Below are positions 5,826 through 53,570 of a DNA stretch of 64,000 nucleotides, one piece after another. This DNA comes from Minisyncoccia bacterium. Its GTDB lineage: Bacteria; Patescibacteriota; Minisyncoccia; Phycocordibacterales; UBA918. A model generated the notes under the pieces. It did not search any database, had not been told where the DNA came from, and saw nothing but the letters and a program-made list of their open reading frames with translations. Numbering within the stretch: the first letter of the stretch is position 1; each line of letters starts with the position of its first letter. A program made the translations under genes and the position numbers. The stretch covers positions 299,446-363,445 of the forward strand of contig JBKBPM010000001.1 in the NCBI GenBank assembly GCA_046293175.1. Direction: 5' to 3'.

Positions 5826-5917
5826 ACTCTCCCATTATAAATCGAAAAAACGTTGCTGTCAAAATAGTAAAACCGGCCCCACGTATGGAGCCGGTTGCAT
5901 TTTTGGTCGATGCCGCT

Positions 5918-6181
5918 TCAGCGTTTCTTCTTGATGATGTGTCGCGTGACTGGCGCGCTTATGGGTGGTCCTCCGTACGGCTCAGACACAACAACCAGCT
6001 TGCCGCGCTGCCACTGCACGTCCTGCCGTTCACTTTCGGCAGGCAACTTGCCGACGTCACCCTCGATGTCGACGACATCGTCGCAGTTGGCGGCAATGTA
6101 CAGGAAGCCGGTAAGCATATTTTGCCCGATCCAGGCATCGTCCGGTACACGGGTGTTGATGGGCGTTCCGGTTTTTTTCAT
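5918..6181 (-). CDS. hypothetical small protein (87 aa) upstream of grpE
   Basis: Good RBS GAAGGAG 6 nt upstream of the ATG. Basic C-terminal tail (IIKKKR). No recognised family. Confidence 0.45.
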   Translation of the reverse strand: MKKTGTPINTRVPDDAWIGQNMLTGFLYIAANCDDVVDIEGDVGKLPAESERQDVQWQRGKLVVVSEPYGGPPISAPVTRHIIKKKR

Positions 6182-6252
6182 CTGGTCACTCCTTCTGACT
6201 TTTGAAATTATATCACAGAATATAAAAAAATCAAAAAGCTACAAACACAAAC

Positions 6253-6276
6253 AAAATCCTCCCGAAGGAGGATTTT
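6253..6276 (-). terminator. rho-independent terminator-like hairpin (aaaatcctcc cgaa ggaggatttt) with U-tracts on both sides
   Basis: Perfect 10-bp stem. In minus sense it is followed by UUUGUUUGUGUUU. Lies downstream (minus sense) of repeat element R1. Confidence 0.5.
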
Positions 6277-6376
6277 GTGTTTTAACGCTTCGGACAGGAA
6301 ACGTAAAAAATGAAATGGAGAGTAAAGCGTGAGATTTCAAAACGGTAGAAATTGGATGCAATACGAGGCGCGCAAG

Positions 6377-6402: not shown

Positions 6403-6545
6403 CTTATTGTGCTTTGTTATAAAACGGAAAGTTTTTGATGTATGGCGAGGAGCATAGGAGAAAATGTTGTGAGTGGGATGAATAATCCAGCGAACAATGT
6501 TTTCTTCGTAGCGACAAAGCCAATCGTCAAAAATTATCGCTTCCC

Positions 6546-6701
6546 CACGAATCACTAAGTATATTTGTTCGCTACGCTCCAAATCTACCAAGTGTTCTCG
6601 GACCCGCCTCGCGGTTTTCTGCTTTGGTAAAGCAGAAAACATCGCTGCGGCCTCAAAACGATAATGGAGTCCAGCAGTGGACTCCATTTGATTATCGTTT
6701 T
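6546..6701 (-). ncRNA. copy R1 of a 3-copy structured repeat / candidate ncRNA family, immediately 3' of rpsI (overlaps the rpsI stop codon)
   Basis: Shares conserved blocks with 53305..53497 and 45708..45775: cacgaatcactaagtata, aagtgttctcg, cccgcctcgcggtttt and aaaacatcgctgcggc (plus strand). The stems between the blocks differ by compensatory changes (see findings). The G-U versus A-U pair in the long hairpin is only valid in the minus-sense transcript. Confidence 0.5.
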
Positions 6702-7096
6702 GACCAAGCTGGGCGCTTGCGAGCTTTAAGGAGACCAAACTTCTTACGTTCTACTGAACGAGCATCACGCTTGAGGAATCCGGCTTTCTTGAGGGTGGTA
6801 CGACGAGCGTCCTTTTCCTTCACGAGTGCACGAGCGATACCAAGTCGGATAGCGTCAGCCTGTGCTGAGATACCCCCTCCTTGTACCTTGGCGGTAATTG
6901 CGTAGTGCTCGATTCCAGCGTCTGGAGTGGCGAGTACTGACTCAATCACCTGTTGGTGACCAACGTGCTTGAAGTATTCAGCCAGTGGACGGTTGTTCAC
7001 GATGACTGAAGTCTCTTTGGCTGGCGTGAGACGCACACGGGTAGTGGCGGTCTTACGACGTCCAATGGCTTCAGTGTAACGAGTTGCAGTAGCCAT
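6692..7096 (-). CDS. rpsI: 30S ribosomal protein S9
   Basis: GRRK N-terminus and the characteristic C-terminus ...KARKRPAWSKR. Confidence 0.9.
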   Translation of the reverse strand: MATATRYTEAIGRRKTATTRVRLTPAKETSVIVNNRPLAEYFKHVGHQQVIESVLATPDAGIEHYAITAKVQGGGISAQADAIRLGIARALVKEKDARRTTLKKAGFLKRDARSVERKKFGLLKARKRPAWSKR

Positions 7097-35347: not shown

Positions 35348-35511
35348 ATGGGGCTGAGTGTAGCAGAAAAGTCTATAAAAAAGAAGCCGCCCTCCGAAGA
35401 AGGCGGTGTCGAGGGAGCCGTACCAGGAGCCGGCGGGACTGCTCTAGGTACATCATGCGGCCAGCATCAATGAGGCTCACCTCGACATTTCTACTATAGC
35501 AGAGACGATAG

Positions 35512-45506: not shown

Positions 45507-45658
45507 AAGATCTAGATTATACCAGTGAAGACGCCTGCCTAGGACTTTACTTACGAGGGATGTATGGTGGTGGGTTAGATGGTGGTGGAATTTATCGTTA
45601 CATGGTTAGTATAGTTTATCGCTATTTTGTGTCGCAATGCTCGCAAGTAACTGGTAAA

Positions 45659-45834
45659 CTTTTGATTCCCCTAAGGTCGCACAACAGCAACGACATAGGA
45701 ATCGGTCACCAGTCACTAAGTATATTTGTTCGTTTCACTCCAAATCTACTAAGTGCTGTCCACCCCGCCTCGCCGACCCAGAGGGTCCCCGGCTACGTCT
45801 TTCGATTCCCCTAAGGTCGCACAACAGCAACGAC
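45659..45834 (-). repeat. copy R2 of the structured repeat family, bracketed by 36-bp direct repeats (1 mismatch) carrying an inverted 16-18 nt copy of the tRNA-Ala(GGC) 3' end
   Basis: Direct repeats ctttYgattcccctaaggtcgcacaacagcaacgac at 45659..45694 and 45799..45834. Between them, 45708..45775 matches the long hairpin and the CCGCGAGG block of R1/R3. Confidence 0.55.
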
Positions 45835-45865
45835 CACAATGCAAAAACATTGTGGTCGGCTGATT

Positions 45866-45938
45866 GTGGACCTTAGGGGAATCGAACCCCTCACCTCTTC
45901 CATGCCATGGAAGCGCTCTACCAAATGAGCTAAAGGCC
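45866..45938 (-). tRNA. tRNA-Ala (anticodon GGC)
   Basis: Reverse complement folds as a cloverleaf GGGCCUU/AAGGUCC with G3:U70, anticodon loop AUGGCAU, T-loop GGUUCGAUUCC and A73. No CCA encoded. Confidence 0.9.
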
Positions 45939-45947
45939 CGGTGCGTA

Positions 45948-52975: not shown

Positions 52976-53304
52976 ATGGGTACTCGACTTCTTCTGCCGA
53001 GACACGTTTTGAAATCGCTTCGACCCACCGGCTCCAGTCATGACGACGAGAGAACGGAATACGGCGGATTGACTCGATATACTCGCCTACCATAACACAG
53101 GCCGTTACGTAAGCTTCTTTAAGGTCTTTGTGGCTCACAAAGTGCAGTGTAGCGATTAGCTTCTTTGTTGGCCATGGTGACCTCCTTGTCTGGCGGTAGC
53201 ATAGAGGATTTGAGTAGGATGTAAAATGGAAGACCCTCGAAGATTCGGTCCTTACAGAACCAGTACCCGTTGTCGCTATATTGTTTTGCAATTACTGCAG
53301 TGGT

Positions 53305-53497
53305 CACGAATCACTAAGTATAATCTCTCACTACGTTCAGATTCTACTAAGTGTTCTCGACCCCGCCTCGCGGTTTTTCGCCTTGCGAGGGCGAAAAACA
53401 TCGCTGCGGCTTCCACATCGGCACGGAAGCGATACTTATCGCTTCCTAGACAAAACAAAGACCACTCCAGTGAGTGGTCTTTGTTTGTCTGCCGATG
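53305..53497 (-). ncRNA. copy R3 of the structured repeat / candidate ncRNA family, abutting the 3' end of tRNA-Ala(UGC)
   Basis: Same conserved blocks as R1, with compensatory stem differences. An extra 5'-proximal (minus sense) multi-hairpin domain is closed by ccacatcggca/tgccgatgtgg, which includes the last 3 nt of the tRNA. Confidence 0.5.
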
Positions 53498-53570
53498 TGG
53501 ACCCGAGAAGATTCGAACTCCCTGCCTCCTCAGTGCAAATGAGGCGCTCTACCAAGTGAGCTACGGGCCC
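53498..53570 (-). tRNA. tRNA-Ala (anticodon UGC)
   Basis: Reverse complement GGGCCCGUAGCUCA...CCUCAUUUGCACUGAGG...GGUUCGAAUCU...CGGGUCCA. G3:U70, anticodon UGC, A73. No CCA encoded. Confidence 0.9.

Follow-up and report, generated by a model that had tools for sequence, protein, structure and literature searches.

The 64,000-nucleotide stretch analysed here (the window) carries on its minus strand three related structured sequences, R1, R2 and R3, which raise the question of what kind of genetic unit they are. A sequence-only reading had proposed a lineage-specific ncRNA family or a structured mobile or terminator module. To the reading that R1, R2 and R3 are small (~150–200 nt) non-autonomous insertion elements with a conserved scaffold, which target tRNA 3' ends and the T-loop-like 3' end of rpsI by a mechanism that we infer, we give about an even chance.

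Three copies in the window and their parts

A covariance model run over the window with filters off found only three copies, all on the minus strand: R3 (53300-53416, 56.7 bits, E = 1e-10) downstream of tRNA-Ala(TGC) (53497-53570, minus strand), R1 (6536-6660, 41.4 bits, E = 2.6e-7) downstream of rpsI (6692-7096, minus strand), and R2 (45694-45812, 28.5 bits, E = 1.8e-4) downstream of tRNA-Ala(GGC) (45866-45939, minus strand). The next-best match (35373-35497, E = 0.2) was rejected as a fourth copy because it is a terminator-like hairpin. A repeat search of the window gave one three-copy family with 82–84% identity (80–84% over the core), and the pattern GCGAGGCGGG-N3-10-CACTTRGTAGA occurred three times compared to 0.00 expected from shuffles.

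Both searches agree with the number, positions, strand and gene contexts first described for these copies. The compensatory changes claimed for hairpin A, the inner helix AUUUG/CAAAU versus AAUCU/AGAUU, and the G.U pair in the outer helix of R1 are likewise present. Other parts of that description had to be changed. The blocks described as unpaired are largely paired (CCGC with GCGG, CG with CG), and GAGAACACU, also taken to be unpaired, forms the base of the long hairpin together with AGUGAUUC. R2, which had been considered short, is full-length according to the covariance model; its first block is degenerate and its hairpin A differs. The element also reaches beyond the conserved blocks on its 5' side, where a hairpin and then a stretch antisense to the 3' end of the host gene lie upstream of the core.

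The order of the element is host 3' end, hairpin, antisense of the host 3' end (the 'guide'), core, and a second sense copy in the right flank. The scaffold comprises P1, formed by guide and right-flank repeat; P2, with two 2x2 internal loops and hairpin A; and P3, with a nearly invariant G.U pair and hairpin C. The annotated parts are the following.

53302..53409, minus strand: R3 core, with P2 (CCGC/GCGG, CG/CG, hairpin A), P3 (GGUCGAGA/UCGUGACC) and the hairpin C cap; covariance-model match, fold z = -4.2
53413..53423, minus strand: R3 guide TGCCGATGTGG, antisense of the tRNA-Ala(TGC) 3' end and trailer; complement match, read-through fold
53424..53500, minus strand: R3 5' hairpin, with apex ACUG and a side hairpin at 53426-53447; sequence reading, fold
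53295..53303, minus strand: R3 right-flank target repeat CCACTGCAG, corresponding to CCACATCGGCAG at the tRNA end and forming P1 with the guide; sequence comparison
53228..53298, minus strand: decayed 'type B'-like element after R3, GGTACTGGTTCTGTAAGGAC then CGAATCTTCGAGGGTC; alignment with type B 3' modules
6543..6650, minus strand: R1 core, with blocks 1 and 2 and hairpins A and C intact; covariance-model match, fold z = -4.1
6653..6665, minus strand: R1 guide ATTATCGTTTTGA, antisense of the rpsI end TCAAAACGATAAT (Ser-Lys-Arg-stop); sequence reading, fold
6663..6703, minus strand: R1 5' hairpin, its 5' arm being the rpsI 3' end (6703-6691) and then CAAATGGAGTCCA, with apex CUGC (6674-6677); sequence reading, terminator scan, fold
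6533..6542, minus strand: R1 right-flank repeat AAGCGATAAT, a second copy of the rpsI stop region, followed by ancestral intergenic sequence; relatives' loci
45704..45798, minus strand: R2 core, degenerate and full-length, with block 1 ACGUAGCCGGG and hairpin A GACCC-UCU-GGGUC; covariance-model match
45801..45818, minus strand: R2 guide GACCTTAGGGGAATCGAA, exact antisense of tRNA-Ala(GGC) TTCGATTCCCCTAAGGTC (45869-45886); 18-nt exact complement
45831..45858, minus strand: R2 5' hairpin CGACCACAATG-TTTTTG-CATTGTGGTCG, terminator-like; terminator scan
45695..45704, minus strand: R2 right-flank repeat CGATTCCTAT, a copy of the T-loop and the 3' part of the T-stem, forming P1 with the guide; sequence comparison, covariance model
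45587..45694, minus strand: second, different element directly after R2, with a 'type B'-like core CTTGCGAGCAT ... ACTAACCATGTAACGAT; repeat search, alignment with type B elements L026 and L100

R3 is the canonical family member within the window. Its guide is an exact complement over 12 nt that starts 5 nt before the tRNA end (complemented sequence TCCACATCGGCA), and it pairs with the tRNA 3' end in the predicted read-through fold. The 5' arm of its 5' hairpin begins in the final 4 nt of tRNA-Ala(TGC) (CCAC, 53500-53497), and the predicted fold of 53290-53512 has -111 kcal/mol (z = -10.3). In R1 the closing pairs of P3 are non-canonical (GUCC...GGGG), and in the predicted fold of 6528-6712 (z = -7.1) the guide is base-paired to the end of rpsI. 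R2 has kept P3 and hairpin C intact; its guide is complementary to tRNA-Ala(GGC) from the T-loop, starting at T54, to the acceptor 3' strand. The element after R2 opens with 36 nt (45659-45694) that repeat the 3' arm of the hairpin and the guide, and closes, downstream of its type B-like core, with a decayed T-loop repeat. The decayed element after R3 aligns with the type B 3' modules (GGTGTACAGnnnCTGTAAG and T-loop repeat) of L026, L100 and L087; its CGAATCTTCGAGGGTC is a copy of the T-loop and 3' part of tRNA-Ala(TGC).

Fold, predicted transcription signals and spread of the family

Comparative analysis demonstrated that the scaffold of ~110 nt is a predicted three-way junction conserved across Patescibacteria and Elusimicrobia. 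Of its 36 pairs, 27 had compensatory changes when 19 sequences were aligned independently by MAFFT, and 34 had them among 93 distinct sequences. In the latter set, 92.3% of the cells were paired, compared to 66.8% in shuffles and 37–48% in slid controls. P1 also covaries across the family. These values strengthen the initial claim of selection on a folded single strand. G.U combinations outnumber A.C by 193 to 36 in the 93 sequences, indicating that the tRNA-sense strand is the folding strand, and one particular G.U pair recurs in 84 of them; the minus-sense polarity assigned to R1, R2 and R3 was therefore correct. The scaffold probably acts as a single strand of tRNA-sense polarity, and RNA is the most likely form.

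A 101-codon frame in R1 (beginning MFSALPKQKTARRVREHLV...) and a 41-codon frame in R3 have similar N-termini, as a small protein-coding gene would predict. However, element frames gave no Pfam match, the R2 frame has an in-frame stop, and in 36 of the 72 members the frame starting at the ATG of block 1 runs into a stop in fewer than 25 codons. Hairpin lengths also differ across the family by amounts that do not keep the frame, and substitutions compensate for pairing. With no Pfam match and only half of the members keeping the frame open that far, a coding gene was rejected, its probability being negligible, and the element is regarded as non-coding, as was already proposed.

No family of Rfam 15 (4227 models, among them the curated riboswitches, introns, ribozymes and housekeeping RNAs) other than tRNA reached gathering thresholds in the window and 16 loci. 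At E-value cut-offs of 5–10, the window and canonical members gave only weak matches (≤24 bits), mostly on flanking terminator-like hairpins, with some overlapping the element. This is consistent with the earlier failure to match the element to a known RNA family. Intron_gpI gave no match at the same cut-offs, and the core consists of two hairpin domains of ~110 nt in total. TIGR-Tas arrays were rejected since their RNAs are 36 nt and unrelated, as were the group I introns of patescibacterial tRNA genes, which are located at anticodon-loop position 35/36. Full-text literature searches found no description of tRNA-flanking structured elements in Patescibacteria or Elusimicrobia, and the element family is apparently undescribed.

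A promoter and terminator scan of the window found no promoter for R1, R2 or R3. The 5' hairpins of R1 (apical part, 6663-6688) and R2 (45831-45858) scored as intrinsic terminators; for that of R3 no terminator was called by the same scan. The combination of hairpin and T-run is confined to the 5' hairpin, and the core is conserved structure beyond a terminator. Together with long palindromic terminators that relatives carry across the rpsI stop codon, these scores would suit an elaborate transcription terminator or 3' stabiliser of highly expressed genes, with neither guide function nor mobility. We consider this very improbable. The cores of R1 and R2 sit downstream of the terminator-like hairpin, and the core keeps, unlike terminators, ~40 specific nucleotides and a three-way junction across two phyla. 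The target duplications and empty sites described below would also be left unexplained.

To the covariance-model search of the window we added genomes, and the three copies proved to belong to a widespread family. Exact-pattern scans of genomes and metagenomes yielded ~130 true loci, nearly all of them in Patescibacteria and Elusimicrobia; about 47 of 118 genome matches were excluded as chance matches in G+C-rich genomes. As many classes of Patescibacteria and also Elusimicrobia carry the family, it is not lineage-specific. Misbinning is very likely for the locus L025, assigned to 'Muribaculaceae', whose element sequence is identical to that of L084 from Elusimicrobia, and may also apply to L091 ('Duodenibacillus') and L104 ('Gammaproteobacteria'), both on short contigs. 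The association with tRNA 3' ends, suspected from the window, is very strong: a same-strand tRNA, with any anticodon, lies within 120 nt upstream in 64 of the 96 model matches in genomes, and a further 11 lie directly behind another copy. An independent metagenome sample had a same-strand tRNA within 130 nt upstream in 35 of 58 cases. The 3' end of rpsI is occupied in at least four separate lineages, and each guide matches its own codons.

Insertion sites, guides and a candidate mechanism

At rpsI, the core is absent in five relatives (L121, L122, L123, L125 and L126) with RpsI 85–90% identical. In these, the rpsI stop abuts the homologue of window positions 6532-6500, the sequence that comes directly after the R1 right-flank repeat. 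The empty site indicates that R1 is an insertion of ~158 nt. Import of the present 3' end of rpsI was tested by comparing L126 with L127; the loci are ~10% different throughout, and a Ser-codon switch at the rpsI end is therefore only suggestive. Tandem arrays and stacks of decayed copies occur in the family, including a 201-nt unit in three tandem copies in L091 and tandem units in L110, L089 and L040. The same 5' module stands before several unrelated cores. The empty site, the target duplications and the tandem arrays directly support the 'mobile module' option and, taken together with the tRNA 3' association, uphold the original proposal of an ncRNA family or a structured mobile or terminator module.

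By comparison of complementary stretches, the putative guide was found to match its cognate host gene and not other tRNAs, the exact complement having a median of 11 nt to the cognate tRNA versus 5 nt to non-cognate tRNAs. Relative to the tRNA end, guide starts fall into two groups, -21 to -23 and -3 to -7, and the attachment point is accordingly T54-C56 of the T-loop or 3–7 nt before the tRNA 3' end. The inverted pair of guide and right-flank repeat differs in every copy and equals the local target. Exact right-flank repeats range from 4–6 nt, which is chance level, to 32 nt, and some run far beyond the need of pairing, even including terminators; repeats of 18–32 nt argue against an origin solely by selection for P1 pairing. 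The apex of the 5' hairpin is CUGC in 50 of 113 elements, compared to a background of 2.8%. In L124, L127 and L128, long palindromes extend over the rpsI stop codon although no core is present, so an ordinary terminator arm could account for part of the 'guide'.

A family of host-beneficial sRNAs, expressed as tRNA-sRNA dicistrons, would also place structured RNAs at these sites. The scaffold would be released by tRNA-processing enzymes or RNase III, the 5' segment would pair with the 3' part of its own pre-tRNA and control folding, 3' processing or termination, the right-flank copy would act as an internal decoy, and mobility would be ancient or incidental. In agreement with such a role, the copies lie on the same strand directly downstream of the host gene without a promoter of their own, and two alternative guide pairings are possible. 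Within-genome copies have diverged (median identity 64%; identical only in tandem units) yet retain their fold and the internal-loop bases that are conserved. Differences between the syntenic copies of five Elusimicrobia are compensatory, and the elements persist in very small genomes. However, copies are present at just 72 of 122 tRNA genes in the sampled loci, and rpsI of close relatives has none. The right-flank repeats exceed the pairing need with up to 32 nt and included terminators, the identical tandem units and decayed stacks resemble repeated insertion, and several unrelated cores share one 5' module. We regard a host sRNA family as possible, if rather unlikely.

To search for a partner enzyme or mobile carrier, neighbouring ORFs within 2.5–3.5 kb were clustered, first for 71 and then for 129 loci. 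In both sets, the recurrent neighbours reflected housekeeping synteny only; we take them to be RecG, a SpoU/TrmH-type methylase, IF-2, a Mur ligase and PolA. No recombinase, reverse transcriptase or nuclease gene recurred within 2.5 kb of the 129 loci, and no ORF was found inside the element units (135–201 nt). The core had no blastn match in phage and plasmid collections. A lone match to a viral contig was rejected as a chance match inside a G+C-rich coding region, and a phage or plasmid origin was rejected for want of a true match in phage, plasmid and viral collections. As no such gene is linked and the core is absent from these collections, the mobilising activity is hypothetical.

These results bear on the idea that the elements are miniature satellites or scars of tRNA-gene integration by a tyrosine recombinase encoded elsewhere, be it on a phage, a plasmid or the chromosome, with a double-stranded attP that includes the tRNA 3' end and a folded core serving as accessory or regulatory RNA. 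The insertion points, T-loop and extreme 3' end, are reportedly the classical integrase sublocations in tRNA genes; the gene 3' end is rebuilt with the old copy displaced, and copies pile up in tandem. We nevertheless judge this origin improbable. In addition to the missing integrase within 2.5 kb of the 129 loci and the lack of matches in phage, plasmid or viral collections, a unit of 135–200 bp is very small for a double-stranded circle, and double-stranded att arms predict neither strand-specific G.U pairs nor compensatory stems.

For the insertion elements we favour, entry may occur by strand exchange within the target segment, starting from a small circular or panhandle intermediate. In this intermediate the guide would pair with the element's own target copy, giving a duplex replica of the chromosomal site, and one crossover would produce the observed order, with the gene 3' end rebuilt and the old end displaced to the right flank. 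The scaffold may be the handle for a trans-acting enzyme that is not encoded nearby. The promoterless element would be transcribed by read-through from the tRNA or rpsI gene, and in the transcript the guide could pair either with the host 3' end, forming a long terminator-like hairpin, or with the displaced copy, forming P1.

Some observations run against the insertion-element reading. The within-genome copies are old, as seen from their median identity of 64%, and the model leaves unexplained how guide and repeat are acquired for a new target. Compensatory divergence of the syntenic copies in five Elusimicrobia would be expected from a locally useful RNA and fits less well with a purely selfish element.

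A more specific reading is that the scaffold is the RNA component of a new nucleic-acid-guided mobility, either through its own catalysis or as guide scaffold of an unrecognised trans-acting recombinase or nuclease. Here, a ~110-nt RNA (or ssDNA copy) would base-pair through its 10–20-nt guide to a tRNA gene, at the T-loop or at the 3' end. The RNA might be a small integrating or ligating ribozyme, possibly acting via a circle joined at the CUGC loop, and the guide would be re-templated from each new target. We hold this to be a doubtful, though not a far-fetched, extension.

Comparison with known systems

Patescibacteria are among the bacteria with the smallest genomes. Despite this, many patescibacterial tRNA genes carry a downstream structured element of 150–200 nt that is absent from curated RNA libraries. 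If the element is a host RNA, it would add a new level to the RNA biology connected with tRNAs, in two phyla that are poorly understood. On the practical side, the elements give carrier genomes partial tRNA copies, long palindromes and tandem units, which can mislead tRNA annotation as well as binning and assembly.

Dicistronic genes of tRNAs and small RNAs, such as plant tRNA-snoRNA genes and bacterial tRNA 3' spacers, resemble the elements in being promoterless, on the same strand and directly behind a tRNA, and tRNA-processing enzymes could release the RNA. However, they lack an antisense copy or repeat of the tRNA 3' end and show no insertion polymorphism. REP/REPIN and MITE-type repeats are likewise short, non-coding, hairpin-forming sequences just 3' of genes with the enzyme encoded elsewhere. 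In contrast to these, the elements have a strict target (tRNA 3' end or T-loop mimic) and a terminal inverted pair derived from it, and their within-genome copies are old and diverged with the fold kept. There is neither a short duplication of fixed length nor a family-wide terminal inverted repeat, and near-identical copies in a genome are confined to tandem units, the median identity being 64%.

Integrative elements of tRNA genes (tyrosine-integrase islands, prophages and satellites) also insert in the T-loop or at the tRNA 3' end, restore that end from an element-borne copy, leave the old copy as a direct repeat, and stack in tandem. They measure kilobases, whereas the elements described here have 150–200 nt without integrase or any other gene, and carry in addition an antisense target copy and a strand-specific, covarying conserved fold. 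Such a fold, with inverted repeats that rebuild a duplex site and with compensatory change, is known from integron attC and CTX-phage attP(+). We found the corresponding features in P1, built from guide and repeated target, in the G.U strand bias and in the covarying stems. Differences are that many unpaired and internal-loop bases are conserved here, that the rebuilt duplex copies a tRNA segment, and that no integron integrase, cassette array or dif-like site was seen nearby.

Self-splicing introns share with the elements an internal antisense to insertion-adjacent sequence (P1/P10 from the IGS in group I; EBS-IBS in group II) and a host gene that stays functional. Group I introns have a conserved P3–P9 catalytic core with a G-binding site and are usually at least 200 nt in size. 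The core found here has ~110 nt and no Rfam intron match, and the flanking 'exon' is duplicated, which is not the case with introns.

The bridge (seek) RNAs of IS110/IS1111 are likewise structured ncRNAs encoded by an element, with parts complementary to the flanking target, and pairing could specify the site in both cases. They differ in having an adjoining DEDD/serine recombinase gene inside the element, while the present elements have none and no ORF inside. In bridge RNAs, split guides for target and donor lie in each of two internal loops; a search for complementarity to the host tRNA target gave here a single contiguous stretch of 10–20 nt 5' of the scaffold, which would be another layout. 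Furthermore, the target duplication is long and variable here, and the guide differs in each copy. If mobile, the element would be gene-less, with its choice of site written in a base-pairing segment beside a conserved scaffold. Bridge RNAs, omega RNAs and intron guides are programmable systems with this architecture; here it would come without a linked protein, and a partner enzyme or self-catalysis, if found, would be of general interest.

The element copies in the window and their fold

Three copies of the element lie in the window, each directly behind its host gene, a tRNA gene or rpsI:

R1, minus strand, 3' of rpsI (6692-7096)
R2, minus strand, 3' of tRNA-Ala(GGC) (45866-45939)
R3, minus strand, 3' of tRNA-Ala(TGC) (53497-53570)

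A repeat search of the window joined R1, R2 and R3 into a single family with 82–84% identity. A 21-base pattern over two conserved blocks matched three times in the window against 0.00 expected from shuffles, and the covariance model of the family found the same three copies there and no others. The window is patescibacterial, and its RpsI is nearest to proteins of Parcubacteria, Kaiserbacteria and Paceibacteria. The helices and compensatory substitutions listed in the sequence-only reading were all found in R1–R3, and each copy folded far better than its own shuffles (z about −4). Three details of that reading were revised: most of the blocks it described as unpaired are paired; R2, taken as a shorter copy, is full-length and degenerate; and each element reaches further 5' than the conserved blocks.

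A protein-coding gene was rejected, as Pfam gave no match for the frames that are open across R1 and R3, R2 contains a stop inside this frame, and 36 of 72 family members do not keep it open for 25 codons. A known RNA was rejected as well. The proposed Rfam 15 scan reported the two tRNAs alone in the window; at E-value cut-offs of 5 or 10, applied to the window and to canonical members elsewhere, it returned only weak matches of at most 24 bits, mostly to terminator-like hairpins, and no Rfam 15 family matches the element.

Nineteen members of similar length were aligned with MAFFT, and the RNAalifold consensus yielded a three-way junction of about 110 nt, the core:

P1, closing helix
P2, CCGC/GCGG and CG/CG, each followed by a 2x2 loop (AG/AG after the first), with hairpin A as the cap
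P3, GGUCGCGA/UUGUGACC, capped by hairpin C

Compensatory changes occur at 27 of the 36 pairs in this alignment. With the covariance model derived from it, standard pairs made up 92.3% of cells in an alignment of 93 distinct sequences, compared to 66.8% after column shuffles and 37–48% with partners slid by 1–3 columns in the same alignment, and both sides change at 34 of the 36 pairs. Because the model itself shaped the 93-sequence alignment, the independent evidence is that from MAFFT, and it bears out the covariation claimed earlier. In the 93 sequences, G·U outnumbers A·C by 193 to 36 (75 to 33 minus two conserved G·U columns), and one P3 G·U is found in 84 of the 93 sequences. Thus, the tRNA-sense strand folds, in agreement with the assignment to the host-gene strand in the sequence-only reading. 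The simplest reading is that the folded molecule is RNA; the alternative is single-stranded DNA of tRNA-sense polarity.

Spread and genomic placement

A scan of one genome per species with the pattern CCGCAGCGATG-N18-40-CCGCGAGGCGG gave at least 118 loci. Among the 118 matches listed, about 71 are true members, from many lineages of Patescibacteria (Saccharibacteria, Paceibacterota/Parcubacteria, Kaiser-, Nomura-, Taylor-, Lloyd- and Adlerbacteria) and also from Elusimicrobia; the remaining listed matches were dismissed as chance matches in G+C-rich genomes. The covariance model found 96 copies in the 71 loci, and a stricter pattern added 59 loci from metagenomes. Three short element-carrying contigs (numbered loci L025, L091 and L104) come from bins of unrelated phyla (Muribaculaceae, Duodenibacillus and Gammaproteobacteria, respectively). 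The element sequence of L025 is identical to that of the Elusimicrobia contig L084, so that L025 is very likely misbinned on this sequence evidence; L091 and L104 may be misbinned.

The association with tRNA 3' ends seen in the window held throughout the family:

Placement of the element
Genomes (96 model matches): same-strand tRNA within 120–130 nt, 64; another copy immediately in front, 11; contig edge, 10; tRNA within 400 nt, 4; other, 7
Metagenomes (58 loci): same-strand tRNA within 120–130 nt, 35; within 450 nt, 8; contig edge, 5; other, 10

Every anticodon type is represented among the tRNA hosts. Among the 122 tRNA genes of the sampled loci, just 72 have a copy, and the element is therefore optional. 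In several of the other placements, the upstream sequence ends like a tRNA, although ARAGORN called none. Clear T-arm and acceptor 3' ends, likewise uncalled, lie about 100 nt upstream of the element in L004, L009, L130, L147 and L185; these may belong to tRNA genes that contain introns or are unusual in some other way. The rest of the non-tRNA placements are mainly rpsI. The family of R1–R3, type A, sits at the rpsI 3' end (codons W-S/A-K-R-stop) in at least four separate lineages (the window, 6691-6703, also L104 and L120; L006; L110/L073; L181), and the antisense copies there each match their own synonymous codons. As an observation only, TGGTCNAARCGNTAA at the end of rpsI is similar to the T-loop consensus GGTTCRAAYC.

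Target copies and insertion

At the loci read, the order was constant: host 3' segment, hairpin, antisense copy of that segment (the guide), core, and a second sense copy (the right-flank repeat), with the guide abutting the core. The exact complement of the guide has a median of 11 nt against the cognate tRNA vs. 5 nt against non-cognate tRNAs. Guide starts fall into two classes, at T54 in the T-loop and 3–7 nt ahead of the tRNA end; the right-flank repeats of the first class start near C56 and those of the second 3–5 nt ahead of the end. These repeats have a median length of 8 nt (up to 32 nt) and take in the tRNA terminator in some Elusimicrobia. An exact CUGC tetraloop occurs in the hairpin of 50 of 113 elements (background 2.8%). 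Of the window guides, that of R2 is a perfect 18-nt antisense of tRNA-Ala(GGC) from T-loop to acceptor strand, that of R3 spans the tRNA-Ala(TGC) end and trailer, and that of R1 the final rpsI codons and stop. Neither tRNA-Ala gene encodes a 3' CCA. The element hairpin begins within a few bases of both, so that the last 4 nt of tRNA-Ala(TGC) lie in the hairpin stem. The 5' hairpins of R1 and R2 score terminator-like, and no promoter-like site was found upstream of the window cores. In predicted folds of the read-through transcripts, the guide forms a long hairpin with the 3' end of its host gene (z = −7.1 for R1 and −10.3 for R3), and the element folded alone is closed by P1.

R2 and R3 both run directly into a decayed element whose core is of a different type, type B, with the 3' module GGTGTACAGnnnCTGTAAG:

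45587-45694, minus strand, decayed type B element behind R2
53228-53298, minus strand, decayed type B element behind R3

Each ends in one more incomplete copy of the T-loop and 3' part of the tRNA that R2 or R3 follows. In the element behind R2, the guide region is the 36-nt repeat 45659-45694/45799-45834. Just downstream of the R3 complex lies a promoter-like TTTACA-16-TATGCT (53198-53225), upstream of an 18-codon ORF (MANKEANRYTALCEPQRP; 53119-53175, minus strand) with a strong AAGGAGG ribosome-binding site; a similar TATGCT box occurs downstream of R1. At least three other small structured cores were found behind tRNA genes:

Type B, L026:381-531, L100:1392-1560, L087, L041
Type C, L089, tandem with period 137
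Type D, L116:2146-2300 and the flank of L109

All have the 5' module of type A (hairpin, antisense T-loop, GAAAG/GAAAA) and a right-flank tRNA 3' repeat, indicating that type A is one member of a wider class.

Relatives with RpsI 85–90% identical keep rpsI-grpE-dnaK synteny and lack the core. In L121, L122, L123, L125 and L126, the stop codon directly abuts the homologue of the window sequence after right-flank repeat AAGCGATAAT. This empty site indicates that R1 is an insertion of about 158 nt with about 10 nt of the rpsI end duplicated. Elsewhere, a 201-nt unit that includes a copy of the tRNA 3' end is present three times in identical form in L091; tandem units also occur in L110, L089 and L040. 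At the site where L035 and L085 carry a single copy, L015 has two that have diverged.

Three relatives carry a core-less palindrome after rpsI with arms overlapping the gene end (L124:2899-2950, L127:2905-2960, L128:2899-2950). It is perfect over 23–26 nt in L124 and L127, where it reaches the last codons, and near-perfect in L128, where it reaches the stop region. An antisense copy of the gene end can therefore exist without the core. The L127 palindrome looks like a 38-nt hairpin inserted in the middle of a short pre-existing inverted repeat. Compared along the whole locus, L126 and L127 differ by about 10%, and a Ser-codon switch at the end of rpsI is at most suggestive of an imported gene end. 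The rpsI-grpE spacer is variable, with small unannotated ORFs that differ between relatives: 87 aa in the window (5918-6181, minus strand; spacer 5826-6340) and, in L121:2906-4858, L124:2906-3614 and L128:2906-3401, 180 aa plus an amino-acid kinase, 158 aa or 105 aa.

Interpretation and likeness to known systems

A non-autonomous insertion element whose site is read by base pairing, and whose scaffold serves a factor acting in trans, fits these data best. Entry would occur by a single exchange inside the target segment, rebuilding the gene and displacing its old end, and the conserved scaffold would serve the trans-acting factor. A small circular or panhandle intermediate, the guide paired with the element's own target copy, would account for the order of the three target copies, not for the gain of new targets. 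No recurrent recombinase, reverse transcriptase or nuclease was found near the element among 129 loci, and a search of viral, phage and plasmid collections did not find the core. A tRNA-linked RNA that is useful to the host, its guide acting on its own pre-tRNA, is the main rival. Within-genome copies, with a median identity of 64%, are old. Copies at syntenic positions in five Elusimicrobia are set apart by compensatory changes, which points to selection on each resident copy. The insertion element and the host-useful RNA are compatible, not mutually exclusive, readings.

In placement and arrangement at the target, the elements resemble tRNA-gene integrative elements; target complementarity beside a scaffold is a likeness to guide-bearing mobile RNAs such as bridge RNAs and intron guide sequences, and strand-specificity one to folded single-strand att sites. 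They lack the features that define these groups, having no recombinase, intron core or fixed duplication. The family matches nothing in Rfam 15 or in the literature searched, and there is a real chance that it represents something new in kind.
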